Below the pieces are notes generated by a model that was not told where the DNA came from, searched no databases, and worked only from the letters and a program-made list of their open reading frames with translations. From positions 1 to 19,279 of the IMG/VR virus record IMGVR_UViG_2534681764_000019: 19,279 nt of DNA; one strand, given 5' to 3'. This document shows, one piece after another, positions 1 to 14,941 of the stretch. Positions within the stretch are counted from its first letter, which is position 1, and the number at the start of each line of letters is the position of its first letter. This stretch comes from a virus (lineage: Duplodnaviria > Heunggongvirae > Uroviricota > Caudoviricetes). A program made the position numbers and the translations under genes.

Positions 1-1284
1 TTACTTCTTCGCCTCTGCAACCACTTTACTACCCACGCCGCGGTTATTGTATTCCCACATGCGGTTGTAGTTAGTGTCATTCAGATTGCGCTGTATTTCG
101 TCGTTATCATCTACGCTGCCGGTATTACCCGCAAACGGACGATTAGAGATCACCGCATCGGCCCACGGTTTAGCCGTGTTAAAACCTTCGTTGATGGCGC
201 TATCACGGATCACCACCTGACCGTTGGTATTGGCATCAACATCCAGCGAGCGGCCCAGTTGCGCCACACCATCACCGAAAGCATTGAAACGGCTGTTTAC
301 GGCGAGGAAACCGTAGTAAATGTTGGACAGCGTAGCCGGTGCAAACACATACGCTTCTTGCTGAGTACGTGAGTTCACCACGCGGAATTCGGTGTTATCG
401 AACACCACTGCGCCGCGACCAGAAACGATATCCACATCCCCTTCAATGTAGCTGTTGGTCACCAGCGTACGCGGCTGACGGTTGGTTTCCAGACGGTTCT
501 GCACACCGCTGTTGGTGACAAAGAAGGTGTTCTGACGACCGAGAATGTTAACGTTGTTAATCTGTACCTGGTCACCATCAGTACGCAGTGCCACCGCCGG
601 ATGGTTACCTGCATCTACGCTATCGCCCAGCGTGTTTTCGATGGTCAGATTTTGCAGTTGCAGGCCATTGTTTTGTGACCAGAAGACCGCAGAGCAGAGA
701 ACACCGATACTGTCGCTGCGTTTGCTCTGGCAGCTATCGTACATATACCACGCTGGTTTACCTGGCATATATTTGCCGCGCGGGTTGACGTCGTGACGCC
801 AGTCGGCAGGGCTCATGCCACCATCAAGGGAAAGCCCAATCTTCACATCAATCGGTTTTTCACCTGTACCGTACAGAGTAATTCCACCCGGAGCGGCAGG
901 GACATATACCGTTCCCTGATACTCACCAGGCATCACGGCAATATACTGGCGCTTGTTGGTACGCTTGATAATTGCCGCATCTACCGCCGCCTGAATCGTG
1001 GTATGCGTTACACCTTGAGTGCCCGCCGGGCCGACAACAAAGTCAGGTTGCGCAGGCAGGGTAATCGGGGAAGGATTCCACGCTGCAGCACCTGGTGTCA
1101 GGGATGCAAAATAGTGTTGAGCATCGAAATTCTGCGCTTCTTTTGCCGACAGAATCGGGCGAGAAGAGGTACCAGGCGCGGTTTGATCAGAAGGACGTTG
1201 ATCGGGCGGGGTTGAGCTACAGGCGGTCAGCGTCACGCCAAAAGCCAATGCCAGCGCCAGACGGGAAACTGAAAATGTGTTCAC
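1..1284 (-). CDS. ybhC: YbhC-like lipoprotein (pectinesterase-family / acyl-CoA thioesterase), host gene flanking attB-lambda
   Basis: 427-aa ORF with lipoprotein signal and lipobox (MNTFSVSRLALALAFGVTLTAC); recognised from memory as E. coli ybhC, which lies on the gal side of the lambda attachment site; stop codon at window positions 1-3. Confidence 0.85.
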   Translation of the reverse strand: MNTFSVSRLALALAFGVTLTACSSTPPDQRPSDQTAPGTSSRPILSAKEAQNFDAQHYFASLTPGAAAWNPSPITLPAQPDFVVGPAGTQGVTHTTIQAAVDAAIIKRTNKRQYIAVMPGEYQGTVYVPAAPGGITLYGTGEKPIDVKIGLSLDGGMSPADWRHDVNPRGKYMPGKPAWYMYDSCQSKRSDSIGVLCSAVFWSQNNGLQLQNLTIENTLGDSVDAGNHPAVALRTDGDQVQINNVNILGRQNTFFVTNSGVQNRLETNRQPRTLVTNSYIEGDVDIVSGRGAVVFDNTEFRVVNSRTQQEAYVFAPATLSNIYYGFLAVNSRFNAFGDGVAQLGRSLDVDANTNGQVVIRDSAINEGFNTAKPWADAVISNRPFAGNTGSVDDNDEIQRNLNDTNYNRMWEYNNRGVGSKVVAEAKK

Positions 1285-1330
1285 AGGTTGCTCCGGGCTA
1301 TGAAATAGAAAAATGAATCCGTTGAAGCCT

Positions 1331-1345
1331 GCTTTTTTATACTAA
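1331..1345. other. attL core (B-O-P'), 15-bp lambda att common core
   Basis: Exact GCTTTTTTATACTAA; left flank GTTGAAGCCT is the bacterial B arm, right flank GTAGGCATTATAAAAAAGCATTGCTTATCAATTTGTTGCAACGAACAGGTCACTATCAGTCAAAATAAAATCATTATTTGATTTC is the phage P' arm as I recall it. Confidence 0.9.
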
Positions 1346-1390
1346 GTAGGCATTATAAAAAAGCATTGCTTATCAATTTGTTGCAACGAA

Positions 1391-1422
1391 CAGGTCACTA
1401 TCAGTCAAAATAAAATCATTAT
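1391..1422. promoter_or_regulatory. Int arm-type binding sites (P'1-P'3) in the P' arm
   Basis: Tandem CAGGTCACTAT / CAGTCAAAAT / AAATCATTAT motifs matching the arm-type consensus, directly upstream of the int 3' end. Confidence 0.55.
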
Positions 1423-2489
1423 TTGATTTCAATTTTGTCCCACTCCCTGCCTCTGTCATCACGATACTGTGATGCCATGGTGTCCGACTTATGCCCGAGA
1501 AGATGTTGAGCAAACTTATCGCTTATCTGCTTCTCATAGAGTCTTGCAGACAAACTGCGCAACTCGTGAAAGGTAGGCGGATCCCCTTCGAAGGAAAGAC
1601 CTGATGCTTTTCGTGCGCGCATAAAATACCTTGATACTGTGCCGGATGAAAGCGGTTCACGACGAGTAGATGCAATTATGGTTTCTCCGCCAAGAATCTC
1701 TTTGCATTTATCAAGTGTTTCCTTCATTGATATCCCGAGAGCATCAACATGCAATGTTGTTGGGATGGCAATTTTTACGCCTGTTTTGCTTTGCTCGACA
1801 TAAAGATATCCATCTACGATATCAGACCACTTCATTTCGCATAAATCACCAACTCGTTGCCCGGTAACAACAGCCAGTTCCATTGCAAGTCTGAGCCAAC
1901 ATGGTGATGATTCTGCTGCTTGATAAATTTTCAGGTATTCGTCAGCCGTAAGTCTTGATCTCCTTACCTCTGATTTTGCTGCGCGAGTGGCAGCGACAGG
2001 GTTTGTTGTTATATGGCCTTCAGCTATTGCCTCTCGGAATGCATCGCTCAGTGTTGATCTGATTAACTTGGCTGACGCCGCCTTGCCCTCGTCTATGTAT
2101 CCATTGAGCATTGCCGCAATTTCTTTTGTGGTGATGTCTTCAAGTGGAGCATCAGGCAGACCCCTCCTTATTGCTTTAATTTTGCTCATGTAATTTATGA
2201 GTGTCTTCTGCTTGATTCCTCTGCTGGCGAGGATTTTTTCGTAGCGATCAAGCCATGAATGTAACGTAACAGAATTATCACTGTTGATTCTCGCTGTCAG
2301 AGGCTTGTGTTTGTGTCCTGAAAATAACTCAATGTTGGCCTGTATAGCTTCAGTGATTGCTATCCTCCTGTCTCGGCCTAATCCAAACTCTTTACCCGTC
2401 CTTGGGTCCCTGTAGCAGTAATATCCATTGTTTCTTATATAAAGGTTAGGGGGTAAATCCCGGCGCTCATGACTTCTCCTTCTTCCCAT
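1419..2489 (-). CDS. int: Tyrosine integrase (lambda Int)
   Basis: 356-aa ORF MGRRRSHERRDLPPNLYIRNNGYYCYRDPRTGKEFGLGRD..., matches lambda Int in length and sequence as recalled; adjacent to attL. Confidence 0.95.
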   Translation of the reverse strand: MGRRRSHERRDLPPNLYIRNNGYYCYRDPRTGKEFGLGRDRRIAITEAIQANIELFSGHKHKPLTARINSDNSVTLHSWLDRYEKILASRGIKQKTLINYMSKIKAIRRGLPDAPLEDITTKEIAAMLNGYIDEGKAASAKLIRSTLSDAFREAIAEGHITTNPVAATRAAKSEVRRSRLTADEYLKIYQAAESSPCWLRLAMELAVVTGQRVGDLCEMKWSDIVDGYLYVEQSKTGVKIAIPTTLHVDALGISMKETLDKCKEILGGETIIASTRREPLSSGTVSRYFMRARKASGLSFEGDPPTFHELRSLSARLYEKQISDKFAQHLLGHKSDTMASQYRDDRGREWDKIEIK

Positions 2490-2685
2490 TTCTGATCCTC
2501 TTCAAAAGGCTACCTGTTACTGGTCGATTTAAGTCAACCTTTACCGCTGATTCGTGGAACAGATACTCTCTTCCATCCTTAACCGGAGGAGGGAATATCC
2601 TGCATTCGCGTACCCATCGACGAACTGTTTCAAGACTTCTTGGACGTCGCTGGCGTGCGTTCCACTCCTGAAGTGTCAAGTACAT
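2467..2685 (-). CDS. xis: Excisionase (lambda Xis)
   Basis: 72-aa ORF MYLTLQEWNARQRRPRSLETVRRWVRECRIFPPPVKDGREYLFHESAVKVDLNRP..., overlaps int start as in lambda. Confidence 0.95.
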   Translation of the reverse strand: MYLTLQEWNARQRRPRSLETVRRWVRECRIFPPPVKDGREYLFHESAVKVDLNRPVTGSLLKRIRNGKKEKS

Positions 2686-2712
2686 CGCAAAGTCTCCGCA
2701 ATTACACGCAAG

Positions 2713-2732
2713 AAAAAACCGCCATCAGGCGG
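2713..2732 (-). terminator. Putative intrinsic terminator (leftward) between small ORF and xis
   Basis: Minus-strand hairpin GCCGCC-tgat-GGCGG followed by TTTTTT. Confidence 0.35.
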
Positions 2733-2892
2733 CTGGGTGTTCTTTCAGTTCTTCAATTCGAATATTGGTTACGTCTGCATGCGCTATCTGCGCCCATATC
2801 ATCCAGTGGTCATAGCAGTCGTTGATGTTCTCTGCTTCGATAACTCTGTTGAATGGTTCTCCATTCCACTCACCTGTGACTCGGAAGTGCAT
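2725..2892 (-). CDS. Small hypothetical protein, positional equivalent of the lambda 55-codon ORF next to xis
   Basis: 55-aa minus-strand ORF (MHFRVTGEWNGEPFNRVIEAENINDCYDHWMIWAQIAHADVTNIRIEELKEHPAA) with GGAG-like RBS; same spacing from xis as the small ORF in lambda by my recollection of the map. Confidence 0.5.
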   Translation of the reverse strand: MHFRVTGEWNGEPFNRVIEAENINDCYDHWMIWAQIAHADVTNIRIEELKEHPAA

Positions 2893-2940
2893 TTATCATC
2901 TCCATAAAACAAAACTGGCCGTAGCGAGTTCAGATAAAAG

Positions 2941-2959
2941 AAAACCCGCACTCGGCGGG
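2941..2959 (-). terminator. Putative intrinsic terminator (leftward), about 280 nt downstream of the 80-aa gene
   Basis: Minus-strand hairpin CCCGCC-gagt-GCGGG followed by TTTTCTTTT. Confidence 0.4.
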
Positions 2960-3240
2960 TTCGCATTCGTTCAAATTGCGTTTACTTCTTGGCGTTCTGT
3001 TCATCCATATCGATATACCATGGGTTGCTTCCCTTGGGCATGTTTAACGACTGCTCGCGATAGTATCTGATGCGCTCCATGAAATACTCGCGTGAGTGCT
3101 CAGGTTGCTCTCATGATACCTGCTCAGTGATAACAGGTATGTTAAGGCGCTCTCTGTACTCCATGCCTGATGCTGCAAGGTCAACGTTTACCTTGTTCTG
3201 TTTTTCTTTCGATTTCTCGGCGATGTTATGCCTGACATTG

Positions 3241-3483
3241 TCAACCCGCCTCCTTCTGAACATAACGGTTATAAATCAGTCCCTGAGGGCCATAAGGAAG
3301 CGGGATGTGCAACTCCTCTGGTTCAGAAACTATCCATTCCCCGGCCATCTCCGCTGGAGAGGTAATGATAAGTTGTTTGCTAATAAAAGGACCACTCCTC
3401 TCAACAACAAGCTTACCATCTTCATTAATAAAAGCTTGGATGTCAGGTGTGCTTACACACTTGGTGATGCAGCGTTTGAACAT
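3241..3483 (-). CDS. Hypothetical 80-aa protein with its own promoter (moron-like)
   Basis: ORF MFKRCITKCVSTPDIQAFINEDGKLVVERSGPF...; G-rich RBS before the ATG; extended -10 promoter upstream; no family recognised. Confidence 0.55.
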   Translation of the reverse strand: MFKRCITKCVSTPDIQAFINEDGKLVVERSGPFISKQLIITSPAEMAGEWIVSEPEELHIPLPYGPQGLIYNRYVQKEAG

Positions 3484-3514
3484 TTTGTGTCCCCCCCATT
3501 TTATGTACGGGGTA

Positions 3515-3523
3515 ATTATAACA
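3515..3523 (-). promoter_or_regulatory. Extended -10 promoter (TGTTATAAT on minus strand) driving the 80-aa gene
   Basis: Minus-strand sequence TGTGTTATAATTACC lies about 35 nt upstream of the ATG at 3483 in an AT-rich gap; no good -35 seen. Confidence 0.45.
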
Positions 3524-3610
3524 CATTGAAATATAGTAATATTTGACGTAGATTTCTTTTGATCTATAAGCGATTTTTTAATGCTTTTAAGTTATAAATA
3601 CTTGTTTTCA

Positions 3611-4663
3611 TCACCCATCTTGCTGCGGTGCTACTATTGAAAAGTACTCACACCCTTTAGCCCAAATAGTTTTGATAGTTGTCCAACTGACTGGAACCTT
3701 GATTTCGATTCTCCCGCTGCCGTCACAAGTTTCGCAATCATCATCACCAAAGCATTCCGGGCAGCTTATAAACGTAGTTTCTGAAAATTCACCGGATAGC
3801 ACACCCTTAGCGCCATTCTCAGCGGTTAGTTTCTTCGGCACTATAACCCAACCATCCGGAGTTACCGGAGAGTTGCCCGATGGCTCGTTCAACTTGTAAT
3901 TCTGGCTTACAGGTTGGCTACCCTGAAGCATGGCGGCGAGGCAGGCGTTCCAGCCATGCATATATCCAGTAATAGACCCCATCTTATGCCACTTATCTGA
4001 ATGAAAAGCGCTCATGGCACCAAGATAGTCGATATATGAAATTTGTTTATACCTTTCATTTGGGGCTTTCTTTTCTGATGCAGCTACATCATTCTCTATC
4101 ATCTGCGCTTGCGTGATGCTGTGTCGCGGTATGTCTGAGTTGTTCATTCTCGCATCCACATTAGCATCAAACTCGTTATATTCCATCTCTGCCAGGTCAC
4201 CCCAACTAGCCAGCCCAGGTTCGTTTTCATCACCGAAAGCATCCTTGTCTCGCAGGAAACGATAGCGCAAAGCATCACGCTCTATGCTTAAGCGCAATAC
4301 CTTTTCGGCTGTCGCAGCATCGCGCCAGGTATTGAATCCATCTGGACCTTTAACTTCTTCGCGCAATTGATAAAGCTCTGCGTAGATTTCATCAGGCACA
4401 GATACCGTCGCTGGCGGGGCGGCGTAGACCTCAATAATTCCATTATCAATAGGCCATTCTCCATCCTTGAGGTAGTCACTTGTGCCGTCAACTTGCTGTT
4501 CTGCAATGTGGAATGCACCTATTGGTTTTGCTTCCAGCGATGCCAGAGCAATTCGTGCCAGTTCTTCCGCTTCTTCTGCTGGCAGTACAACGTTGCTACC
4601 AGGTCCGTATGTTTCGCGCCACTGCTTGATTGTCAGTAGTCGCTCTTTGGTCATAGTGGTCAT
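3611..4663 (-). CDS. Hypothetical 350-aa protein with C-terminal CxxC...CxxCxGxG zinc-ribbon motif; last gene of the leftward operon
   Basis: ORF starting MTTMTKERLL with strong RBS AAGGAGAG; ATG is 1 nt after the upstream gene's stop; C-terminus CPECFGDDDCETCDGSGRIEIKVP; no family recognised. Confidence 0.7.
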   Translation of the reverse strand: MTTMTKERLLTIKQWRETYGPGSNVVLPAEEAEELARIALASLEAKPIGAFHIAEQQVDGTSDYLKDGEWPIDNGIIEVYAAPPATVSVPDEIYAELYQLREEVKGPDGFNTWRDAATAEKVLRLSIERDALRYRFLRDKDAFGDENEPGLASWGDLAEMEYNEFDANVDARMNNSDIPRHSITQAQMIENDVAASEKKAPNERYKQISYIDYLGAMSAFHSDKWHKMGSITGYMHGWNACLAAMLQGSQPVSQNYKLNEPSGNSPVTPDGWVIVPKKLTAENGAKGVLSGEFSETTFISCPECFGDDDCETCDGSGRIEIKVPVSWTTIKTIWAKGCEYFSIVAPQQDG

Positions 4664-4664
4664 A

Positions 4665-5156
4665 TCACTCTCCTTTGATGCGAATGCCTGTTGCAATGCT
4701 GTTTATGATGCTGTCAGTGCATGGGGTAGAAAGCTGGGCATCTCCAGCAATTTTCATGACCTCAACATCTGCATATCGAATACCGAGGTGTATCAGACCG
4801 GCTATGCCTGACTTAAGCCGAGCATTTTCCATAAATAGAACTTTTGCCCGCTGTTTTTCTGCTTCAAGCTCAACGCGCAGCTTCCCTACCGTTAGCGCAA
4901 TTTCCTCGTTCTCCTGATCGCGGGATTTGATGTATTGCTGGTTCCTTTCCCGTTCATCCAGTAGTGCCAAAGCAACCTTTGGATTAAAGGCAGCAATAAA
5001 TTCAGCGTTGTTTTTCAGAACGTGTTGCGCAATGGCCTGACTACTTAGTCGGACCTCATAACCACGTGCGCCACGGTGTGGTTTATATGAGTCCCAGTCT
5101 CCCCACGTTGCTTTCTCTGCCGCCTCACGCAGTGCCTGATAGTTAATTTTGCTCAT
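4665..5156 (-). CDS. Hypothetical protein, tentatively Ead/Ea22-like; coiled-coil middle region
   Basis: 163-aa ORF MSKINYQALREAAEKATWGDWDSY...; the N-terminal ALREAAEKAT motif resembles prophage Ead/Ea22-like proteins as I recall them; translationally coupled on both sides. Confidence 0.55.
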   Translation of the reverse strand: MSKINYQALREAAEKATWGDWDSYKPHRGARGYEVRLSSQAIAQHVLKNNAEFIAAFNPKVALALLDERERNQQYIKSRDQENEEIALTVGKLRVELEAEKQRAKVLFMENARLKSGIAGLIHLGIRYADVEVMKIAGDAQLSTPCTDSIINSIATGIRIKGE

Positions 5157-5157
5157 G

Positions 5158-5457
5158 TCACATCACCCTGAATCCGTTGCATTTACGTAAGAAATCGCAG
5201 ATATAGCCCTTCATTTTTTCGTGCCAATCTCGATCATTCCCATTGCACCAACCATCAGGTGGAGTCCAGTTTTCTATCAGAGCAGCCATTTTCTTTGCTT
5301 TCGCCGGAGTAGCTGTTGCGGTATCGCAGTAATGACGAGTGTCAACCAACGCATCCATACCATCGATATCAAGTATGCAAAACCATGTGTGATTCGGAAT
5401 TCCTACAGGTGGTATTTGTTGCCCACGTCGGCGTTTATCAATGAGATATACACTCAC
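5158..5457 (-). CDS. Hypothetical 99-aa protein (GTG start)
   Basis: [36 protein letters not shown]...; GTG start overlaps the upstream stop (GTGA); 1-nt gap to the next gene. Confidence 0.5.
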   Translation of the reverse strand: MSVYLIDKRRRGQQIPPVGIPNHTWFCILDIDGMDALVDTRHYCDTATATPAKAKKMAALIENWTPPDGWCNGNDRDWHEKMKGYICDFLRKCNGFRVM

Positions 5458-5981
5458 TGGTTGCCTCCTTTGCGAAGCTGGGCGGCGAATCTCTCAGCAT
5501 CAACAGCGCTTCCGCAATAGGCGGCGCGAGTCATGGAATCCAATTCGTTGCGGTTTTTTCTTACGTATTCCTTCTGGCTTTCAGCAAACAACTCCACACC
5601 CTGCGCCCGTACTTCAGCCAGAAAAGCATCGGTGTCTGGGGTTTTTATTTCGTTAAGCGCATCACTGAATCCACCACGCTCCATACCTAGCTCTGCTTCG
5701 TAATCGGCATCGAATGCAGCGTCTTTGCAGAACTTCTTCAGCTTTGCATTCTCCGCCGCCAGCGCTGAAAACTTCTCGTGTGCCAACTTAACAGTCGAAT
5801 CAGCCTGCTTAATTGAATCAATCGCTTTCTGCTGGTCTTCGGACAGAGCCGAAATCTTGGCCTCCGCTTCAGCAAATTTACGCACCAGATATTCAGCGTT
5901 TGTTTCGTTAACCTTTAAATCTCGTGGGATGCATTTACCTTTTAGAAAACCATCCATCTCAATTAGTGACATTTGTTTCAT
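5454..5981 (-). CDS. Hypothetical coiled-coil protein (about 175 aa)
   Basis: [36 protein letters not shown]...; ATG at 5981 overlaps the upstream stop as ATGA; GGGAAG RBS; a GTG 18 nt upstream is an alternative start. Confidence 0.55.
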
Positions 5982-6160
5982 TTCTTCCCACTCCGCCACA
6001 TCGCATTCAGATATTTGTTTTGATTTACTGACGGAAAAGAATTTCTCTTAAGCAATTCCTCTCTCGATGGCATTGGCTTTACGCGTTGGCGAATAATCAT
6101 TTCTGCCGGAAGAATGCCGGGATTGTATGCAAGTCCTCTCATGGTAAATTCCTCAGTCAT
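5978..6160 (-). CDS. Small hypothetical protein (about 60 aa)
   Basis: [43 protein letters not shown]...; start overlaps the upstream gene's stop and stop overlaps the next start (ATGA); start choice is uncertain. Confidence 0.4.
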
Positions 6161-6446
6161 TACTGATAGCGCCATAGCGTGAGCGGTAATTACGCAGGCG
6201 CGGGTCAATTTCAGGGAAGTGGGTGTATGTGGCTTTGCGGAATGGTCGGATTGATGTCTGGTAAATTCGCTCTCGTTCTTCTTTCTCTGCAAGCCATATA
6301 CAATGGCGAAATTCCTTTTCCTCTTTCGTTTCCTGCGGTAGCGACATTATCAGGTCGTAGTTTTTTCTGAATTTATCCAGCACCTCCGATACGGAATTGC
6401 CGGAACAGCGGCGCGGGTCATCCGCACCATACTGAGGCGCTGGCAT
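6153..6446 (-). CDS. Hypothetical 97-aa protein
   Basis: [49 protein letters not shown]...; AGGAG RBS 7 nt upstream; 13 nt after the HNH stop. Confidence 0.55.
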
Positions 6447-6459
6447 GATTTTCTCCTGA

Positions 6460-6939
6460 TTAAATTGCGTGAATAGCGTGACGAGGGAAGGGGAGAGTTA
6501 CTGGCTCCTCGTCTGGGTAGATAGGTTTGTTATGTTTGTGCCACTCGACATGACATGACTTGCAGAGCCACATCACATCGGTTGGTTTGCTGTAGTCGCA
6601 TTGGTGCGCCTGTGGTTTACATTCTGATCCGCAGCACTCACATTGTGGTGGTCGGATTAGCTTACCGTCGCGCAAAAAATTACCCACAATGATGTGGGCT
6701 TTTCTTTTCCATGGGTTGCTCTGAATGAACCGCTTTTTGGCTGCGTTACACCGTTCTCTTCCGCGTTCCGATGATTGATATTCTCTCCTTGCTGATACTC
6801 GATGTGGCAATCCAGCGCGTTCTTTGTCGTATTCAGCCAGGCAAGCCCGGCAAGCGGCAGTTAATCCATCTCTGGATGCTCTTCTGATTTGAAAGTCCCT
6901 TTCTTCCTTCTGTTGATGGCATCTTGAGCAGACTTTCAT
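6460..6939 (-). CDS. Putative HNH (His-Me finger) endonuclease with Cys-rich zinc site
   Basis: 159-aa ORF MKVCSRCHQQKEERDF...; CxxC/CC pairs and a C-terminal AH...WLCKSCHVEWH pattern resembling HNH motifs; AGGAG RBS; directly downstream of ssb. Confidence 0.5.
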   Translation of the reverse strand: MKVCSRCHQQKEERDFQIRRASRDGLTAACRACLAEYDKERAGLPHRVSARREYQSSERGRERCNAAKKRFIQSNPWKRKAHIIVGNFLRDGKLIRPPQCECCGSECKPQAHQCDYSKPTDVMWLCKSCHVEWHKHNKPIYPDEEPVTLPFPRHAIHAI

Positions 6940-6948
6940 ATTCAGCTC

Positions 6949-7422
6949 CTAGAACGGAATATCCGAATCGTCGAAGTTCATAGGTGGTTCGCTGTGATTC
7001 CCCTGCTGCTGAGATTGCTGTCTTTGTTGCTGACCGTTATTTCGCTGATGTGAAGACTGTTCATTGCCTCCTTGTTTGCCACCAAGCATTTGCATGGTTC
7101 CACCAACGCCCACGATGACTTCGGTAGTGAACCGATCCTGTCCGCTTTGATCCTGCCATTTTCTTGTCCGCAATTTGCCTTCAAGATAAACCTCTGAGCC
7201 TTTTCGCAGATATTCGCTGGCAATTTCTGCCAGTTTCCCGCTCATTACCACACGGTGCCACTCCGTCTGCTCCTTTTGCTCTCCAGTTTGCTTATCACGC
7301 CATTGTTCTGACGTAGCAACTGTAAGGTTTGCAAATGCCGTTCCTGATGGTGAATATCTGATTTCTGGATCATGCCCAAGGCGACCAATAATGATCACCT
7401 TATTTACGCCTCTGCTTGCCAT
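6949..7422 (-). CDS. ssb: Single-stranded DNA-binding protein
   Basis: 157-aa [26 protein letters not shown]... with Gly/Gln-rich linker and acidic tail ending DDSDIPF, typical of SSB. Confidence 0.85.
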
Positions 7423-8130
7423 TTATGCCGCCTGTTTTAGCTCGTTAACTCTGATGTTCATTACCTGAACGCATTTAGCCTGCGCCTCCTCGTTTCCAGC
7501 CATTAATTGCCAGTCACGCTGATAACGCTCGATGAGTTTTTTCTTGTCAGTTTCTGTTGACGCATAATCGCTGAAGTCTTTCAGGATTTGTTCGCAGTCA
7601 ACCGATGGAGATTTCTGGTTGGTATTTTCTGGTGATGGTTTGTTATCTGATGCTGGGATTGCCCATCCCGGCAGTGATGGAGGGAGCCAGTAAAATCCTG
7701 TTCCATCCTTCAGTTTTGCCCTGTGCCACCCATGCTTTTTATCGAGAGATGTTTGTGCGAAACCTTCCTCAAGGTTATACAGATACCGACCGATTCCCCA
7801 CTGAACGGCAGCACGCTTCATTGCACCTGAACGACCACCTTTGACGGCTTCTACCTGCGTGTTTTCAGCAGCATCCCATTTGGTTACCCATTCGGAATCA
7901 ATCCTGATTGATATGCCGCATTCAACGCCGCCGTTGTTGGGAATATCGCGGTATTCATTGCGCCATCCTGCTTTGCCGCAAACATCGTCCAGGCGTTTCA
8001 TGATTGCCCTGTTCGTGACATAAGCCAGCACCATAGCCCACACTTTTCCATCGCGTGTTTTACCGCTTTGCTGTATTCGCCATTCGATATCTTCAGGGCT
8101 GAATGGCTCATCGAATTTATTCAAATCCAT
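7423..8130 (-). CDS. Single-strand annealing protein, Sak/Rad52-like (replaces lambda Bet/Exo/Gam)
   Basis: 235-aa ORF; central GGRSGAMKRAAVQWGIGRYLYNL motif resembles Rad52/Sak-family annealases as recalled; stop abuts the ssb start (TAA then ATG); GAGGTG RBS. Confidence 0.55.
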   Translation of the reverse strand: MDLNKFDEPFSPEDIEWRIQQSGKTRDGKVWAMVLAYVTNRAIMKRLDDVCGKAGWRNEYRDIPNNGGVECGISIRIDSEWVTKWDAAENTQVEAVKGGRSGAMKRAAVQWGIGRYLYNLEEGFAQTSLDKKHGWHRAKLKDGTGFYWLPPSLPGWAIPASDNKPSPENTNQKSPSVDCEQILKDFSDYASTETDKKKLIERYQRDWQLMAGNEEAQAKCVQVMNIRVNELKQAA

Positions 8131-8138
8131 AATTCACC

Positions 8139-8309
8139 TCAGAATGGACATGGCCCAAGGAAATAACGCTGGTTTAATACTTCGACTCTGGACAAATTAA
8201 GGCATACCCGCATTCCTTCGCGGTCACCATTATGGCGATACCAGAGAGCTTTCTGCGTGTACATGCGTCTCTGTAACTTGCTCTCCTTCACTGTGGTTGC
8301 AAGTGACAT
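8139..8309 (-). CDS. Small hypothetical ORF (56 aa)
   Basis: MSLATTVKESKLQRRMYTQKALWYRHNGDREGMRVCLNLSRVEVLNQRYFLGPCPF with strong RBS GAAGGAG; overlaps the next small ORF in another frame. Confidence 0.35.
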   Translation of the reverse strand: MSLATTVKESKLQRRMYTQKALWYRHNGDREGMRVCLNLSRVEVLNQRYFLGPCPF

Positions 8310-8388
8310 GAATATCTCCTTCGTTACCGATTAATTCTTTCATCTGACGAATGAATTCTTCGTCTGACCAGTTATCTGTAAAACTCAT
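8230..8388 (-). CDS. Small hypothetical ORF (52 aa)
   Basis: MSFTDNWSDEEFIRQMKELIGNEGDIHVTCNHSEGEQVTETHVHAESSLVSP; start overlaps the upstream ORF's stop as ATGA. Confidence 0.3.
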   Translation of the reverse strand: MSFTDNWSDEEFIRQMKELIGNEGDIHVTCNHSEGEQVTETHVHAESSLVSP

Positions 8389-8537
8389 TTCCTGCGATAC
8401 CACGGAAGGTTGATAGCTGATTTCATAGCTTTATTTGCTTCAAGCCACATTTTTGAATCACCAATAAATCTGGCTATTACTGCTTTGTTCTGTGCAGCAC
8501 GAAGCATCTGGTGATTAATGGCTATTTCATTGCGCAT
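8385..8537 (-). CDS. Small ORF (50 aa), Kil-like by position only
   Basis: MRNEIAINHQMLRAAQNKAVIARFIGDSKMWLEANKAMKSAINLPWYRRK with GGAGG RBS; overlaps the 3' end of the cIII-like ORF as kil overlaps cIII in lambda. Confidence 0.35.
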   Translation of the reverse strand: MRNEIAINHQMLRAAQNKAVIARFIGDSKMWLEANKAMKSAINLPWYRRK

Positions 8538-8656
8538 AACGCCTCCAGTTGTTTCTTTGCTGCTCTGATTAATTGTTTAACTCGGCGTGATAATTCAGAT
8601 TCGTGCGGGTAGAAAGCGGACATGACGCCGCTACCCGCGAGCTGAAAGTGCATCAT
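8522..8656 (-). CDS. CIII-like small protein (44 aa), divergent from lambda CIII
   Basis: MMHFQLAGSGVMSAFYPHESELSRRVKQLIRAAKKQLEALCAMK with AAGGAG RBS; resembles lambda CIII (MQYAIAGWPVAGCPSESLLERITRKLRDGWKRLIDIL...) in length, position and central basic helix, as recalled. Confidence 0.45.
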   Translation of the reverse strand: MMHFQLAGSGVMSAFYPHESELSRRVKQLIRAAKKQLEALCAMK

Positions 8657-8731
8657 GGGTAACTCCTTATATTTGATTGCATAACGAAAACGCCTAGAGT
8701 GAAGCGTTATTGGTATGCGGTAAAGCCGCGC

Positions 8732-9043
8732 TTAGGCGGCTGATGTTTCTTCTTTCAGGCTTTCGAGATATTTACGTGGGTCGTCGTAACATTGGCATTC
8801 GCTGTACCAATCCACCCAGCGATCAGTAAGCCCCATCTCTGATAAATCTTCATCGGTAAGGCTCTCATCCCACATCTCAAGGCCGTTAGCATTGCAGTAA
8901 TCAGGCTTGATGTTGTTGTCATACTGAAAGGCGTCATAATCAGCCAGTGCGTCCATCAGGCGAACACCCTCTTCAACACTTGCCACTTCTGCAATGAACG
9001 GTTTCATAGGTACTTGCGGGATATGCCAGACACGTAATTTCAT
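8732..9043 (-). CDS. Hypothetical 103-aa protein, positional equivalent of lambda ea10
   Basis: ORF MKLRVWHIPQVPMKPFIAEVASVEEG... with GGAGGA RBS; an upstream in-frame ATG at 9097 lacks an RBS. Confidence 0.55.
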   Translation of the reverse strand: MKLRVWHIPQVPMKPFIAEVASVEEGVRLMDALADYDAFQYDNNIKPDYCNANGLEMWDESLTDEDLSEMGLTDRWVDWYSECQCYDDPRKYLESLKEETSAA

Positions 9044-9218
9044 ATTTCCTCCGTCAAAAAAATTGCCCTCACACTGGAGGGCAAAGAAGATTTCCAATAA
9101 TCAGAACAAGTCGGCTCCTGTTTAGTTACGAGCGACATTGCTCCGTGTATTCACTCGTTGGAATGAATACACAGTGCAGTATTTATTCTGTTGTTTATGC
9201 TAAAAATAAAGGCCACCA

Positions 9219-9419
9219 TCAGGCAGCCTTGTTATTCTGTTTACCAAGTTCTCTGGCAATCATTGCCGTCGTTCGTATTGCCCATTTATCGACATATTTC
9301 CCATCCTCCATTACAGGAAACATTTCTTCAGGCTTAACCATGCATTCCGATTGCAGCTTGCATCCATTGCATCGCTTGAATTGTCCACACCATTGATTTT
9401 TATCAATAGTCGTAGTCAT
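9219..9419 (-). CDS. ral: Restriction alleviation protein Ral
   Basis: 66-aa ORF MTTTIDKNQWCGQFKRCNGCKLQSECMVKPEEMF...; matches lambda Ral in length and sequence as recalled. Confidence 0.8.
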   Translation of the reverse strand: MTTTIDKNQWCGQFKRCNGCKLQSECMVKPEEMFPVMEDGKYVDKWAIRTTAMIARELGKQNNKAA

Positions 9420-9489
9420 ACGGATAGTCCTGGTATTGTTCCATCACATCCTGAGGATGCTCTTCGAACTCTTCAAAATCTTCTTCCAT
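9403..9489 (-). CDS. 28-codon ORF (lambda orf28 equivalent), highly acidic
   Basis: MEEDFEEFEEHPQDVMEQYQDYPYDYDY with GAGGTGAG RBS; overlaps the ral start; same size and position as the small ORF beside ral in lambda. Confidence 0.45.
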   Translation of the reverse strand: MEEDFEEFEEHPQDVMEQYQDYPYDYDY

Positions 9490-9497
9490 ATCTCACC

Positions 9498-9824
9498 TCA
9501 AATAAGTGGTTTGCTGCCTAATTTCATTTTCTGGCGACCAACACAAGTCACACCCATTTCACTGCGTGGCTTGCTGTACCATGTGCGCTGATTCTTGCGC
9601 TCAATACGTTGCAGGTTGTTTTCAATCTGTTCGTGGTATTCAGCCAGCACCGTAAGGTCTATCGGATTCAGTGCGCTTTCTACTCGTAATTTCGGTTTGC
9701 GATTCAGCGAGAGAATAGGGCGGTTAACTGGTTTTGCGCTTACCCCAACCAACAGGGGATTTGCTGCTTTCCATTGAGCCTGTTTCTCTGCGCGACGTTC
9801 GCGGCGGCGTGTTTGTGCATCCAT
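9498..9824 (-). CDS. N: Antitermination protein N (lambda-type arginine-rich motif; C-terminus appears divergent)
   Basis: 108-aa ORF MDAQTRRRERRAEKQAQWKAANPLLVGVSAKPVNRPILSLNRKPK...; N-terminal part matches lambda N as recalled; about 200-nt leader containing nutL. Confidence 0.85.
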   Translation of the reverse strand: MDAQTRRRERRAEKQAQWKAANPLLVGVSAKPVNRPILSLNRKPKLRVESALNPIDLTVLAEYHEQIENNLQRIERKNQRTWYSKPRSEMGVTCVGRQKMKLGSKPLI

Positions 9825-10022
9825 CTGGATTCTCCTGTCAGTTAGCTTTGGTGATTGGATGGCCGGCGCTGAACCCCGGCTTACTGGTTAGAGCGCCCGC
9901 ACTACCAGTGACGCTGTCTTGAGGCGCAGATTGGTTACTGCTTGCCATGAGCGCTGTTTATACATTGGTCGAGCATCAGCCTGCTCATTCATCCAATCCC
10001 AAAGCCTTCTGCTTTGAATGCT

Positions 10023-10053
10023 GCCCTTCTTCAGGGCTTAATTTTTAAGAGCC
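10023..10053 (-). promoter_or_regulatory. nutL (boxB hairpin plus boxA-like element)
   Basis: Minus strand reads GCTCTTAAAAATTAAGCCCTGAAGAAGGGCAG; boxB GCCCTGAAGAAGGGC is at 10023-10037. Confidence 0.8.
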
Positions 10054-10092
10054 TCACCTTCATGGTGGTCAGTGCGTCCTGCTGATGCGCTC

Positions 10093-10155
10093 AGTATCAC
10101 CGCCAGTGGTATTTATGTCAACACCGCCAGAGATAATTTATCACCGCAGATGGTT
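10093..10155 (-). promoter_or_regulatory. pL promoter with operators OL1-OL3
   Basis: OL1 TATCACCGCCAGTGGTA (10095-10111), OL2 CAACACCGCCAGAGATA (10119-10135), OL3 TATCACCGCAGATGGTT (10139-10155); minus-strand -35 TTGACA and -10 GATACT. Confidence 0.9.
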
Positions 10156-10311
10156 ATCTGTATGTTTTTTATATAGATTTATTTTTTGCAGGGTTGCGTG
10201 GCTTGGGAGGTGATCGAGAGATCTGAATTGCGATGTTTAGTGAGTTGTATCTATCAATTTTTCAATAAATACAATTTGTTAAGGTGTTGTTAGGTGTGTG
10301 GAGCGAGAGGC

Positions 10312-10337
10312 AAAGAAAACCCGGCACTGGGGCCGGG
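10312..10337 (-). terminator. Intrinsic terminator downstream of the ParA-like gene (tImm analogue)
   Basis: Minus-strand hairpin CCCGGC-cccagt-GCCGGG followed by TTTTCTTT, 10 nt past the stop at 10347-10349. Confidence 0.65.
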
Positions 10338-10346
10338 TTGGTTAAT

Positions 10347-11369
10347 TTATAGTTTAACCACCATCCTATCAATGGCTTCTAAGCAAGATTGTTTATATGG
10401 GGCATTAACTTTTACCCTTCTGTTCATAACTCGTACGCTCCCTGTTGGTAGGATCGAAAATGGACATCCTTTAGCAAAGGCAACAACACCAGTTGTCTGA
10501 AAATCTTTAATATTTACCACTCCCTCTTCAATATTTTCGAAGTCGAAAATTTCAGGGTTACTTAGTAATAGTTGCTGAATATCATTATCGATTGATTTCA
10601 GAACTGCGGCATAGGCTGATGCAGGCCCCATATACTGTGTAAGACGGTTTTTTGCGATCATATGCACTTTGGGTAGTGGTCTGCTCACCGCGGTAAGTTT
10701 GTTTGCAAATGCGTAGGATGCATAAATATCAGATGGCAACTTTAATCCATAAATCAAAGAGAAAGCATTTTGAATGGCGCGACGAGAGGAATCATCAGCC
10801 ATAACTGGCAAGATGAGCTTTTCTACAGCAGCTAATGCTATTTGAGTATAAATTGAAAAACTAGGATTACAGTCAATAAATAAAACATCGTACTCATCAT
10901 TTAGATCTTTAATAAGATCATTAATCCAATCAATGATGCTTACCCATGCATTTGTTCCTGGAATCTGCTGATTAGCAAGAGTGTTGATGGCGTTTGCTTG
11001 AAGCTCAAGAAGCGGGTCACCGCATACCAACGATATATTGGCTGGAATATGTTCGTTGAATTTTTTTGGGTGTGTCAAATAATCGTGGGCATCAACAATG
11101 GGTTTTTGATAAGGCGTCGGGAGGCGCATTTGGAAGTAGCCACCCAAAGTACATCTATTATTTATATCATGCCTAGTCAATAAGTTTATGCTTCCATTAC
11201 CTATTAACCCCCCAAGAAAAAGCTCTGACAAGTTTGCCTGTGGGCACACATCAATAACCAACACGCGCTCAAGCGGGTGAATTTCTGCATATCTGCAAAT
11301 AGCTTGAAATGACAGGCTTGTTTTCCCTGTTCCTCCCTTGTTGTTCCATATAGCATATTTCTTCATCAT
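10347..11369 (-). CDS. ParA/MinD-family P-loop ATPase with about 80-90 aa C-terminal extension, in the position lambda uses for rexA-rexB
   Basis: 340-aa ORF MMKKYAIWNNKGGTGKTSLS...; deviant Walker A KGGTGKT, A' motif VLVIDVCPQANLS, Walker B-like VLFIDCNP; AGGAG RBS 6 nt before the ATG at 11369; an in-frame ATG at 11441 has no RBS. Confidence 0.75.
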   Translation of the reverse strand: MMKKYAIWNNKGGTGKTSLSFQAICRYAEIHPLERVLVIDVCPQANLSELFLGGLIGNGSINLLTRHDINNRCTLGGYFQMRLPTPYQKPIVDAHDYLTHPKKFNEHIPANISLVCGDPLLELQANAINTLANQQIPGTNAWVSIIDWINDLIKDLNDEYDVLFIDCNPSFSIYTQIALAAVEKLILPVMADDSSRRAIQNAFSLIYGLKLPSDIYASYAFANKLTAVSRPLPKVHMIAKNRLTQYMGPASAYAAVLKSIDNDIQQLLLSNPEIFDFENIEEGVVNIKDFQTTGVVAFAKGCPFSILPTGSVRVMNRRVKVNAPYKQSCLEAIDRMVVKL

Positions 11370-11404
11370 AAACTCCTGGTTAACGATGTCATTGCTGGTT
11401 AATG

Positions 11405-11486
11405 TTTTACCATTGGTAAAGTGGTGCACCAAGAGTGACACGGTAAACCAAATAGATCAAGACTTTTGGTAAACGATTTACCAGTG
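11405..11486. promoter_or_regulatory. Operator-like inverted repeats between cI and the ParA-like gene
   Basis: TTTACCA-T-TGGTAAA (11406-11420), GGTGCACC (11422-11429), half-site GGTAAAC (11442-11448), TGGTAAA-CGA-TTTACCA (11466-11482); a minus-strand TTGGTG-17nt-TAAAAC promoter-like element overlaps them. Confidence 0.4.
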
Positions 11487-11537
11487 GTGACATCGATAAC
11501 CGAAAAAGACTGCATTTCTGCAACCTGTTTCACACAA

Positions 11538-12254
<717 letters not shown>

Positions 12255-12261
12255 TTAAATC

Positions 12262-12327
12262 TATCACCGCAAGGGATAAATATCTAACACCGTGCGTGTT
12301 GACTATTTTACCTCTGGCGGTGATAAT
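12262..12327. promoter_or_regulatory. OR3-OR2-OR1 operators with divergent pRM and pR promoters
   Basis: OR3 TATCACCGCAAGGGATA (12262-12278), OR2 TAACACCGTGCGTGTTG (12285-12301), OR1 TACCTCTGGCGGTGATA (12309-12325); pR -35 TTGACT (12299-12304), -10 GATAAT (12322-12327). Confidence 0.9.
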
Positions 12328-12342
12328 GGTTGCATGTACTAA

Positions 12343-12552
<210 letters not shown>

Positions 12553-12559
12553 ATAACCC

Positions 12560-12592
12560 CGCTCTTACACATTCCAGCCCTGAAAAAGGGCA
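12560..12592 (+). promoter_or_regulatory. nutR (boxA CGCTCTTAC and boxB GCCCTGAAAAAGGGC)
   Basis: Both motifs present in order just downstream of cro. Confidence 0.85.
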
Positions 12593-12670
12593 TCAAATTA
12601 AACCACACCTATGGTGTATGCATTTATTTGCATACATTCAATCAATTGTTATCTAAGGAAATACTTACAT

Positions 12671-12949
12671 ATGCAACTTACAAGTACTCGCAAGAAAGCG
12701 AATGCAATTACAAGCAACATCCTGAATCGAATTGCTGTACGTGGTCAGCGAAAGGTTGCCGACGCGTTAGGGATTAATGAATCGCAAATTTCGCGATGGA
12801 AAGACAGCTTCATCCCAAAAATGGGAATGCTTCTGGCTGTTCTTGAATGGGGTGTTGAAGACGAGGAGTTGGCGGAACTGGCTAAGCAAGTAGCCAGAAT
12901 GCTGACAAAAGAAAAAGCCCCGAAGAACGGCGAATTCTTCGAGGCCTGA
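12671..12949 (+). CDS. cII: CII-like transcriptional activator, divergent from lambda CII
   Basis: 92-aa ORF MQLTSTRKKANAITSNILNRIAVRGQRKVADALGINESQISRWKDSFIPKMGMLLAVLEWGVEDEEL...; shares the SQISRWK and MLLAVLEWGV core with lambda CII but differs elsewhere; leader TTGTTATCTAAGGAAATACTTACATATG is lambda-like. Confidence 0.85.
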   Translation: MQLTSTRKKANAITSNILNRIAVRGQRKVADALGINESQISRWKDSFIPKMGMLLAVLEWGVEDEELAELAKQVARMLTKEKAPKNGEFFEA

Positions 12950-12983
12950 TGTAGAAAGACTGGATCAATCCACAGGAGTCATT

Positions 12984-13883
12984 ATGACAAATACAGCAAA
13001 AATACTCAACTTCGGCAGAGGTAACTTTGCCGAACAGGAGCGTAATGTGGCAGATCTCGATGATGGTTACGCCAGACTATCAAATATGCTGCTTGAGGCT
13101 TATTCAGGCGCAGATCTGACCAAGCGACAGTTTAAAGTGCTGCTTGCCATTCTGCGTAAAACCTATGGGTGGAATAAACCAATGGACAGAATCACCGATT
13201 CTCAACTTAGCGAGATTACAAAGTTACCTGTCAAACGGTGCAATGAAGCCAAGTTAGAGCTCGTCAGAATGAATATTATCAAGCAGCAAGGCGGCATGTT
13301 TGGACCAAATAAATACATCTCAGAATGGTGTATCCCTCAAAACGAGGGAAAATCCCCTAAAACGAGGGATAAAACATCCCTCAAATTGGGGGATTGCTAT
13401 CCCTCAAAACAGGGGGACACAAAAGACACTATTACAAAAGAAAAAAGAAAAGATTATTCGTCCGAGAATTCTGGCGAATCCTCTGACCAGCCAGAAAACG
13501 ATCTTTCTGTGGTTAAACCGGATGCTGCAATTCAGAGCGGCAGCAAGTGGGGAACAGCAGAAGACCTGACCGCCGCAGAGTGGATGTTTGACATGGTGAA
13601 GACCATCGCGCCATCAGCCAGAAAACCGAATTTTGCTGGGTGGGCTAACGATATCCGCCTGATGCGTGAACGTGACGGACGTAACCACCGCGATATGTGT
13701 GTGCTTTTCCGCTGGGCCTGCCAGGACAACTTCTGGTCCGGTAACGTGCTGAGTCCGGCCAAACTCCGCGACAAGTGGACCCAGCTCGAAATCAACCGTA
13801 ACAAGCAACAGGCAGGCGTGACAGCCAGCAAACCAAAACTCGACCTGACAAACACTGACTGGATTTACGGGGTGGATTTATGA
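12984..13883 (+). CDS. O: Replication initiator O
   Basis: 299-aa ORF MTNTAKILNFGRGNFAEQERNVADLDDGYARLSNMLLEAY..., lambda O as recalled; contains the ori iterons. Confidence 0.95.
   Translation: MTNTAKILNFGRGNFAEQERNVADLDDGYARLSNMLLEAYSGADLTKRQFKVLLAILRKTYGWNKPMDRITDSQLSEITKLPVKRCNEAKLELVRMNIIKQQGGMFGPNKYISEWCIPQNEGKSPKTRDKTSLKLGDCYPSKQGDTKDTITKEKRKDYSSENSGESSDQPENDLSVVKPDAAIQSGSKWGTAEDLTAAEWMFDMVKTIAPSARKPNFAGWANDIRLMRERDGRNHRDMCVLFRWACQDNFWSGNVLSPAKLRDKWTQLEINRNKQQAGVTASKPKLDLTNTDWIYGVDL
13332..13460. repeat. ori-lambda: four iterons plus AT-rich unwinding region inside O
   Basis: ATCCCTCAAAACGAGGGA (13332-13349), ATCCCCTAAAACGAGGGA (13352-13369), ATCCCTCAAATTGGGGGA (13376-13393), ATCCCTCAAAACAGGGGGA (13399-13417), then ATTACAAAAGAAAAAAGAAAAGATTATT. 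Confidence 0.9.
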
Positions 13884-14868: not shown

Positions 14869-14893
14869 CCATCTACATCACTGAGCTAATAAC

Positions 14894-14922
14894 AGGCCTG
14901 CTGGTAATCGCAGGCCTTTTTA
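14894..14922 (+). terminator. tR2-like intrinsic terminator between ren and ninB
   Basis: Hairpin AGGCCTGC-tggtaatc-GCAGGCCT followed by TTTTTATTT. Confidence 0.75.
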
Positions 14923-14941
14923 TTTGGGGGAGAGGGAAGTC

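Follow-up and report, generated by a model that had tools for sequence, protein, structure and literature searches.

Mosaic build of an EaA-type early protein from a lambdoid prophage and the reach of its C-terminal four-cysteine domain

We analyzed a 19,279-nucleotide stretch of Caudoviricetes DNA (IMG/VR record IMGVR_UViG_2534681764_000019, positions 1 to 19,279), the whole of which is referred to below as the window. It carries a lambdoid prophage integrated beside ybhC (1-1284), and the gene considered here is an open reading frame (ORF) on the minus strand at 3611-4663, which encodes 350 amino acids plus a stop codon and represents a mosaic early accessory protein of the EaA/PHROG-60 type (the target). 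A first-pass annotation had picked out this ORF, and both its start (ATG, 4663-4661) and its stop (TGA, 3613-3611) could be read directly from the sequence. The predicted protein has a net charge of -23 and an isoelectric point (pI) of 4.6.

Directly upstream lies a gene for a 163-amino-acid protein (4665-5156, minus strand) that matched Pfam Ead_Ea22 (E = 5.8e-32). Its TGA stop (4667-4665) is separated from the ATG of the target by a single base (4664), and a Shine-Dalgarno sequence, AAGGAG (4670-4675, minus strand), is found 6 nt before that ATG, within the end of the upstream gene. The coupling of the two genes that the first-pass annotation described is thus visible in both the 1-nt gap and the ribosome site. 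The Ead_Ea22 gene directly preceded the exact target ORF in all six contexts compared, including one with a different recombination cassette, and the 1-nt junction was retained in each of them (5999/6001). A longer, TTG-started version of the ORF (from 4696), which would overlap the upstream gene, is unlikely.

The genes that precede the pair on the same strand form a PL-type operon. They encode N-like, Ral, a GP17-family superinfection-exclusion protein, CIII, Kil, a Rad52-type recombinase and SSB, and the operon continues with a 159-amino-acid Cys-rich ORF, Abc2, DUF2737, a 181-amino-acid ORF, DUF7739, the Ead/Ea22-like gene and then the target. Beyond the target stop is an AT-rich gap of 127 nt (3484-3610), followed on the minus strand by an 80-amino-acid ORF (3241-3483), a theta-like pseudogene, a 55-amino-acid ORF (2725-2892), xis (2467-2685) and, near ybhC, int (1419-2489). 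The target is therefore not the last gene of the leftward operon, as had been proposed. No terminator-like site was found on the minus strand of the gap, and no Rfam family, repeat or terminator-like feature was found within the target gene or just past it. The target is an intact lambdoid prophage gene, placed and oriented as in the early-left (PL) operon of lambda, and its expression is presumably driven from PL.

To place the protein we used a PHROGs profile search, in which phrog_60 matched residues 1-349 (E = 1.5e-49, 170.9 bits) while five smaller PHROGs each matched one piece of the protein. Among 5.8 billion proteins searched (8,000 candidates scored), at least 7,948 homologues were obtained at E ≤ 1e-3, and the names given to them by their sources include Eaa protein, DUF550- or DUF551-domain-containing protein, hypothetical protein and “molecular chaperone DnaJ”. 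Residues 1-45 are 90-98% identical to many EaA members, the stretch I38-A45 is near-invariant among 80 sequences, and the gene lies, as in EaA, in the early-left operon with the recombination genes on one side and xis/int on the other. By these matches the target belongs to the EaA (P22 eaA)/PHROG-60 mosaic family of lambda-like prophages and not, as first suggested, to an unknown family. This family is already known and very large, without assigned function.

Searches of Pfam, NCBIfam and PADLOC with the whole target protein returned nothing significant, and the single protein, searched against PDB sequences, yielded noise only (topoisomerase IV, E = 0.28). No characterized housekeeping family was matched in Pfam, NCBIfam, PADLOC or the PDB. 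Ead_Ea22 (PF13935) was not matched in the target by Pfam at E up to 0.1, although the upstream neighbor does match it. Nor was DUF551 (PF04448) matched in the target; the sister proteins P0001 and P0003 carry DUF551 where the target has its zinc module.

Modular anatomy and the chimeric allele

Module limits were taken from BLASTP of the target against 120 homologues and from reading of the sequences. The ends of the alignments clustered at residues 45, 60, 87-92, 233-235, 250 and 258. Module 1 (residues 1-45; 4529-4663, minus strand), delimited by this clustering, is the helical family head, MTTxTKERLL...ELARIALASLEA. The head, in the general form MTT.T.E....ELARIALASLEA, is common to proteins named Eaa, DUF550, DUF551 and “DnaJ”, and an alternative head is found in P0006 and P0110. 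Module 2 (residues 46-92; 4388-4528, minus strand) is a small optional module that ends in a Pro-rich linker, VYAAPP, and is absent from the 197-201-amino-acid relatives P0064 and P0072. It is followed by an optional, helical insert of 140 residues (residues 93-232; 3968-4387, minus strand) made of two sub-modules, EIYAELYQLREEVKGPDGF... and RYRFLRDKDAFGDE..., whose order is reversed in P0045 and which are found apart from each other in virulent Klebsiella phages and Hafnia phage Enc34. The helices of the insert are of low confidence in the AlphaFold model. The N-terminal region, which the first-pass annotation could not place, thus consists of the standard EaA-family head and this optional insert.

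The second part of the protein begins with a junction and linker (residues 233-267; 3863-3967, minus strand) of the form GWNAC.AAMLQG..PVS....GNSPV, with TPDGW following, and hit starts cluster at residues 233-258. The C-terminal domain (residues 268-350; 3614-3862, minus strand) reads P.GW..VP..LTAENGAK..L.GEF, then a zinc knuckle, then V.W..IK.IW. The knuckle motif reported earlier, CPECFGDDDCETCDGSGR, is present at residues 301-318 (3710-3763, minus strand), and one structural zinc is presumed to be bound by C301, C304, C310 and C313.

Comparison with individual homologues illustrates how these pieces are exchanged. P0001 and P0003 are approximately 92-94% identical to the target over residues 1-269/284 and then carry a DUF551 end, while P0010 and P0016 share residues 1-92 and 235-350 with the target without the insert. 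Architectures of head, insert and zinc module are common (P0016, P0047 and P0110). When the full protein was modeled with AlphaFold from an 80-sequence alignment, it appeared as a low-confidence, mostly helical string with a predicted local distance difference test score (pLDDT) of 49, unusable for a fold search. As judged from the alignments, the target is a beads-on-a-string protein built of portable mini-modules, and the conserved linkers between them act as in-frame recombination sites. Compared to P22 EaA and other PHROG-60 proteins, the target has the same head module, linkers, acidic modular build and early-left position, but it is a particular combination of head, module 2, 140-residue insert and zinc module.

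The two halves of this combination could be traced to different prophages. Over 2,078 bp, positions 6000-3923 of the window share 99.95% identity with a metagenomic prophage (L047) in which the upstream cassette is the same and the slot of the target holds the 413-amino-acid DUF551 protein P0003. Positions 3877-2401 are 99.05% identical to the prophage of E. coli A134_1EC (L002), which occupies the same ybhC site and whose slot holds a 197-amino-acid protein named “DnaJ”. By these matches two prophage lineages contributed to the target allele, an in-frame chimera whose parts meet at residues ~247-262. Because the two parental matches end at 3923 and 3877, the junction corresponds to the ~45 nt of linker between these positions.

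The full-length arrangement of the chimera was found in only 1 of 5,426 complete E. coli genomes, and pieces of it were found in 1,954. Gene callers nevertheless give the exact 350-amino-acid product on 16 public contigs, which represent at least three prophage backgrounds. One has lambda-type Int at the ybhC site, another lies at a second site beside the csc sucrose genes, and a third is a prophage with a RecT-type recombination cassette. No disruption of the ORF was seen in relatives.

A different picture is given by the Prokaryotic Genome Annotation Pipeline (PGAP) for E. coli NZ_CP141863.1, which matches the window over 1-9578 only (99.83% identity) and has a different immunity region beyond. 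There, the locus is annotated as a DUF551-protein pseudogene fragment (4529-4663) and a 262-amino-acid hypothetical protein starting at GTG 4399. One possibility is that this annotation is correct and that the long ORF is a recombination accident in which a decayed DUF551 fragment precedes a separate gene. The scarcity of the full-length arrangement and the demonstrably recombinant nature of the allele would agree with this. On the other hand, the frame is unbroken, residues 1-269 are collinear with the intact P0003 (~92% identity, with DNA 99.95% identical to the P0003 locus), and a strong ribosome site precedes the ATG while no AGGAG-like site is visible ahead of GTG 4399. Moreover, other gene callers give the 350-amino-acid product on the 16 contigs in several prophage backgrounds, and architectures of the same kind are common in the family. 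We therefore regard the pseudogene explanation as extremely improbable. The target ORF is far beyond chance, since it is present on those contigs, has more than 7,900 homologues and ends in a module whose ratio of nonsynonymous to synonymous substitution rates (dN/dS) is 0.08-0.18.

The DUF551 label of PGAP derives from the shared head alone (4529-4663), and the split of the locus is an artefact that arises when homology guides the annotation of a mosaic gene. The name “molecular chaperone DnaJ”, given by PGAP to sister proteins that have no J domain, is a second annotation artefact, and the locus exposes both. It is also a clean, dated case of in-frame domain swapping at conserved linkers, in which two parents at 99-99.95% identity and a ~45-nt junction show how prophages make new effector combinations. 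The target itself is a new allele of a known, uncharacterized kind, the product of fairly ordinary phage gene shuffling and not a new kind of system.

The C-terminal domain and its relation to DnaJ and anti-TRAP

The most interesting part of the target is its terminal domain, which is absent from curated domain and structure libraries yet conserved across phyla. When residues 268-350 were searched alone against 1.84 billion representatives, matches fell into 1,312 clusters at 50% identity, 800 of them at E ≤ 1e-10. The match was mostly at the C-terminus of the protein and at times internal. Stand-alone domain proteins of 80-89 amino acids were also found (L018, L037 and L041), and elsewhere its fusion partners are coiled coils, Lar-like ribbons, dATP/dGTP pyrophosphohydrolase, Ead_Ea22, DUF551 or DUF3850/ASCH. 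Distant homologues, at 35-57% identity, are carried by phages of Serratia, Pseudomonas and Vibrio and were also found in the genomes of Pseudomonas, Massilia, Burkholderiaceae, Xanthobacteraceae, Cellvibrio, Azotobacter, Nevskia, Erwinia, Smithella and Maribacter. By these matches, the last ~80 residues (LTAENGAK..GEF..CxxC-xn-CxxC..W..IK.I) are an autonomous domain that occurs alone or fused across Proteobacteria. By the same comparisons, the domain is carried by temperate phages of Enterobacterales, Pseudomonas, Burkholderiales, Vibrio and others.

The four cysteines were invariant in 245 of 245 module-bearing proteins, where the motif is almost fixed as CPECFGDD[DE]C[ED]TCDGSG; a fifth cysteine of the target allele (C338) is Ile or Val in other proteins. 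Across the distant homologues the invariant positions are the A and K of LTAENGAK, GEF, the four cysteines and W..(I)K.I, with the exception of a homologue from Maribacter sp. ACAM166 (L040 6010-6195). This stand-alone protein of 61 amino acids keeps LTAENGAK, GEF and W..IK.IY but has no CxxC pairs. The two pairs are 5 residues apart in the target and 4-20 residues apart in homologues, and the GxG that follows the second pair is often lost in distant ones.

The domain was acidic in every homologue scored (pI 4.1-4.9, net charge -3 to -11), including that of the target (pI 4.4). Compared to Citrobacter, Pseudocitrobacter, Trabulsiella and other genera, its dN/dS was 0.08-0.18 at dS 0.7-1.9, and on these estimates the domain is under strong purifying selection. 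A model of the domain only was better defined than that of the full protein (pLDDT 71, core 75-85) and showed three strands leading into the Cys loop, followed by a fourth strand and a long helix.

In the first-pass annotation the protein was called a zinc ribbon with a CxxCxGxG motif of the DnaJ type. Two CxxC pairs are indeed present, but “ribbon” is a loose term for them. A classical ribbon draws its knuckles from two separate beta-hairpins, usually more than 10 residues apart, whereas in our model, which is of moderate confidence and includes no zinc, both knuckles lie in one loop between strands 3 and 4. Because the pairs are only 5 residues apart and form one loop, the structure is probably a compact knuckle pair and not a classical ribbon. 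The resemblance to DnaJ held at the level of the motif and not in the conservation of GxG among distant homologues. Since GxG is not conserved and one homologue has no cysteines at all, the zinc knuckle is a decoration on a larger conserved domain and does not define it.

No significant match of the C-terminal domain was obtained in Pfam, PDB or fold searches. In Pfam searches at E up to 10 with three parts of the target, only sub-threshold matches to the knuckle were seen, GRXCR1-2_C (E = 0.035) and Anti-TRAP (E = 0.083). The latter (PF15777) stayed below its gathering score, at 13.3 bits against a cut-off of 32 with 12 residues aligned. In the PDB the sole match of the module profile was the DnaJ Cys-rich domain 1exk (whole-sequence E = 0.0078; independent E-value of the best stretch, 1.2), aligned over 23 residues (20-25) with a 5-residue gap. 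A comparison with anti-TRAP by hhalign gave a probability of 83% over 25 columns, a value that serves as a lead only. By all these searches the similarity to DnaJ and anti-TRAP is confined to the zinc knuckle.

It could be speculated that the target is nevertheless a DnaJ-like co-chaperone, whose zinc domain binds unfolded clients or recruits DnaK. Many relatives are named “molecular chaperone DnaJ” by PGAP, and 1exk is the only PDB sequence match; in its Cys-rich domain, as in the target, CxxC knuckles are paired and the second is a perfect CxxCxGxG followed by a strand. However, the DnaJ domain has two zinc sites and the target one, and the spacer of the target is 5 residues shorter. DnaJ has four CxxCxGxG repeats while the target has two CxxC pairs, only the second of which is CxxCxGxG, and DnaJ_CXXCXGXG was not matched at E up to 10. 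A J domain was not matched in Pfam (E up to 0.1 for the whole protein and up to 10 for the three parts), and the HPD tripeptide is absent from the target protein. There is also no G/F region and no C-terminal client-binding domain, and the similarity that remains covers 20-25 residues with a 5-residue deletion and a GxG that distant homologues have lost. The target is not a DnaJ, because J domain and HPD tripeptide are both missing and it has a single potential zinc site; membership of the family is effectively refuted, and a co-chaperone role is highly improbable.

Anti-TRAP of Bacillus is the closer analogue in layout. It is a 53-amino-acid, single-zinc, DnaJ-like inhibitor that is small and acidic and acts purely by binding another protein, and it shows a strand, CxxC, a short loop, CxxCxGxG, a strand and a helix in the same order as the target domain. 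It has no counterpart to the N-terminal LTAENGAK hairpin. By analogy with anti-TRAP or with half of the DnaJ Cys-rich domain, the four cysteines of the target would together bind one structural zinc, which would staple a loop whose length varies.

Genomic context and possible role

To see where the domain occurs elsewhere, we surveyed same-strand ORFs within 3 kb of the module gene at 28 non-enterobacterial loci and assigned them with Pfam. Phage integrase accounted for 12 neighbor ORFs, C5 cytosine DNA methylase for 11, arm-type DNA-binding domains for eight and reverse transcriptase for four, while Exc, ERF, YqaJ, SSB and NinX were found once each. Because integrases and other such genes neighbor the module gene at these distant loci, the int-proximal accessory position is conserved. 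The first-pass annotation had assigned the target to this region; the location is true here, and the position is kept for the C-terminal module in distant genera.

In the Pseudomonas prophages L020, L021, L026 and L030-L032, the module gene usually lies directly downstream of a gene for a large C5 cytosine DNA methyltransferase and the integrase is 2-3 kb downstream of the module gene. This recurrent pairing might hint at an anti-restriction context.

Three further known systems resemble the target in part. The first is YfdS, a DUF551 protein of CPS-53 that blocks oriC initiation together with YfdQ and YfdR when these are overexpressed (PMC4776307). The phenotypes of YfdS are weak, being sensitivity to H2O2 and a contribution to the inhibition of oriC initiation (PMC4776307). 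In phage PhiR40_1 a zinc-module protein follows yfdP, yfdQ, a gene for an HD-hydrolase (YfdR-like) and eaE; its gene is thus roughly at the place of yfdS in CPS-53 (order from PMC4776307), with eaE intervening. DUF551 also takes the place of the zinc module at the end of proteins that are otherwise near-identical and occupy this slot (P0001 and P0003). There is no sequence similarity between DUF551 and the zinc module.

The second is Ea22, which lambda and Stx phages encode within their exo-xis region and which occupies the same genome region and combines a conserved N-terminus with swappable acidic C-terminal domains (PMC10834534). These domains are variable and dimeric, and the effect of the protein is pro-lysogenic (PMC10834534). 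Some database “Ea22” proteins carry the zinc module itself (H51-H54). In contrast to Ea22, the target has no Ead_Ea22 match in Pfam and no obvious long coiled coil, and its head is of another sequence family.

The third resemblance is to the polyvalent proteins of phages and conjugative elements, reportedly described by Iyer, Burroughs, Anand, de Souza and Aravind in 2017. Like them, the target strings many small, independently mobile domains in one early-acting protein, and Lar-like restriction-alleviation ribbons are found in its relatives, for example in P0045. Proteins of the target kind have 200-500 residues, however, against thousands in polyvalent proteins, and no recognized enzymatic anti-restriction domain is found in the target.

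Our interpretation combines a description and a function, and the composite of the two, a mosaic early protein that acts as a binder, is in our judgment about an even proposition. The descriptive part, in which the gene is real, mosaic and recombinant and its domain autonomous, constrained, acidic and widespread, we hold with high confidence. The functional part, that the protein serves as a binder in host takeover, is possible but stands somewhat short of even. Within it, the target would most likely act without enzymatic activity, by binding a host protein, and would be made early to aid host takeover or counter-defense. The C-terminal domain, neither an enzyme nor a nucleic-acid binder, would bind a conserved host (or phage) protein through its invariant LTAENGAK/GEF/W..K surface. 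The whole protein would then be a small polyvalent early factor that delivers several binders at once, which would serve host takeover, lysis-lysogeny modulation or counter-defense, and DUF551 (as in YfdS) may be an alternative warhead in sister alleles. The literature on Ea22 (PMC10834534), YfdS (PMC4776307) and the Oad2 reservoir (bioRxiv 10.64898/2026.07.10.737580) supports such a mechanism. The last of these proposes that lambdoid phages keep a reservoir of anti-immunity genes, such as the EaE-related anti-OLD Oad2, in their recombination-to-int region. An anti-defense or host-interaction role of the target is plausible.

Several points weigh against this proposal. Zinc binding, protein binding and the binding partner of the C-terminal domain are all deduced from sequence, and no study of the C-terminal domain was found in the literature on EaA, Eaa, DUF550, DUF551 and Ea22 with anti-defense. 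The view of the protein as a flexible string may partly reflect low model confidence (pLDDT 49). As the Maribacter homologue lacks CxxC pairs, zinc is dispensable for the fold in at least one lineage. The best PADLOC match, PDC-M01B only (E = 0.027, 11.7 bits, 26 residues), lends no weight to anti-defense. Finally, lambda Ea22 had no partner in yeast two-hybrid surveys (PMC10834534), which suggests that such proteins may not be simple binary binders.

The main rival to a host-directed binder, and one we consider unlikely, is that the C-terminal domain mainly dimerizes and that any effect, for example a pro-lysogenic bias, comes from the multimer and not from a host target. The C-terminal domains of Ea22 are dimeric and acidic whatever their sequence (PMC10834534). 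Among 145 representatives, the module is fused to Ead_Ea22 coiled-coil heads in seven and to dATP/dGTP pyrophosphohydrolase in eight. Anti-TRAP, the nearest motif analogue, is an obligate oligomer, and strong conservation is also possible for self-interfaces. However, the stand-alone versions of 80-89 amino acids would be pointless as mere dimerization tags, and polar E, N, K, E and K residues that are invariant across phyla are more typical of a conserved external ligand.

Recognition of DNA or RNA by the domain, with a role in transcription, small RNA (sRNA) action or recombination, is quite improbable. It would account for the four-cysteine zinc motif, for the recombination, replication and integration genes among the neighbors and for the TraR/DksA-type zinc protein adjacent to the domain in Pseudomonas phage pAN, and sRNA binding was speculated on by the Ea22 authors (PMC10834534). 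Against this, the domain is uniformly acidic with a knuckle loop rich in Asp/Glu, the whole protein shares that charge, and no nucleic-acid-binding family was matched in Pfam, NCBIfam or the PDB.

The invariant polar residues (Glu, Asn and Lys) could alternatively form the catalytic or nucleotide-binding site of a small enzyme. E16, N17, K20, E26 and K65 (module numbering) are strictly conserved from Bacteroidota to Enterobacterales, and the domain is fused to nucleotide pyrophosphohydrolases. A core of ~60 residues is very small for an enzyme, however, and searches by fold and by sequence related the domain to no enzyme family. We judge this explanation very improbable.

If the target is indeed a binder, a widespread inhibitor family would be added to the region that already holds Abc2, Ral, Gam, Kil and the anti-OLD Oad2; otherwise it is one more uncharacterized lambdoid “ea” gene. 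Tentatively, and with more doubt than for binding as such, we propose that the LTAENGAK/zinc-knuckle unit, which had no relative in Pfam, NCBIfam, the PDB or fold searches, is an undescribed portable domain that temperate phages across Proteobacteria may deploy as a specific inhibitor of a conserved host protein, with DUF551 as its interchangeable counterpart. It would act by itself or on carriers of EaA/Ea22 type, and its host target might belong, for example, to an immune system or to the replication or recombination machinery.

Other genes in the window

Several other genes of the window may be of interest in their own right. The 159-amino-acid Cys-rich ORF between ssb and abc2 (6460-6939, minus strand) matched PHROG 2340 (endonuclease; E = 1.9e-46) and, at its N-terminus, a Lar-like restriction-alleviation PHROG (E = 6.5e-07), with no Pfam match. 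It has no PGAP annotation in the closest complete genome and is called by other gene callers.

Over residues 9-72, the 181-amino-acid ORF (175 amino acids according to PGAP; 5454-5999, minus strand) shares 53% identity with the “EaE protein” from PhiR40_1. Ead/Ea22-type PHROGs match the C-terminal part of the ORF. Oad2, an inhibitor of OLD, is EaE-related and sometimes fused to EaD/Ea22 proteins (bioRxiv 10.64898/2026.07.10.737580). As an EaE-like protein, the 181-amino-acid ORF is therefore a candidate anti-defense gene. The DUF7739 protein was also considered as an EaE/Oad2 relative and rejected (E = 0.15); the relative is the 181-amino-acid ORF upstream of it.

Between the target and xis, the gene resembling theta (HolE, DNA polymerase III) at ~2982-3263 (minus strand) has an internal stop. 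In two different prophages that share this attachment site, the annotation lists it as a pseudogene.

A 364-amino-acid AAA_31/ParA-like ATPase is encoded in a low-GC island (0.37-0.42) at 10347-11441 (minus strand), directly downstream of a cI-like repressor gene (11538-12251) and at the position of rexAB in lambda. It had no PADLOC match, and it could be a moron or a prophage-encoded defense gene. Assembly GCA_000356105.2 (L053) also carries this AAA_31 neighbor.

In the nin region, a PAPS-reductase-domain protein of 310 amino acids (15319-16248, plus strand) matched SspD (E = 2.2e-14) and BrxP (E = 1.6e-05) in PADLOC and resembles DNA-modification or defense components. It is probably the counterpart of lambda's PAPS-reductase-like gene in that region.

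Two tRNA genes, Asn(GTT) and Thr(TGT) (17965-18120, plus strand), are found a short way downstream of the gene for antiterminator Q. A phage-borne tRNA-Thr(UGU) can counter the OLD tRNase (bioRxiv 10.64898/2026.07.10.737580).

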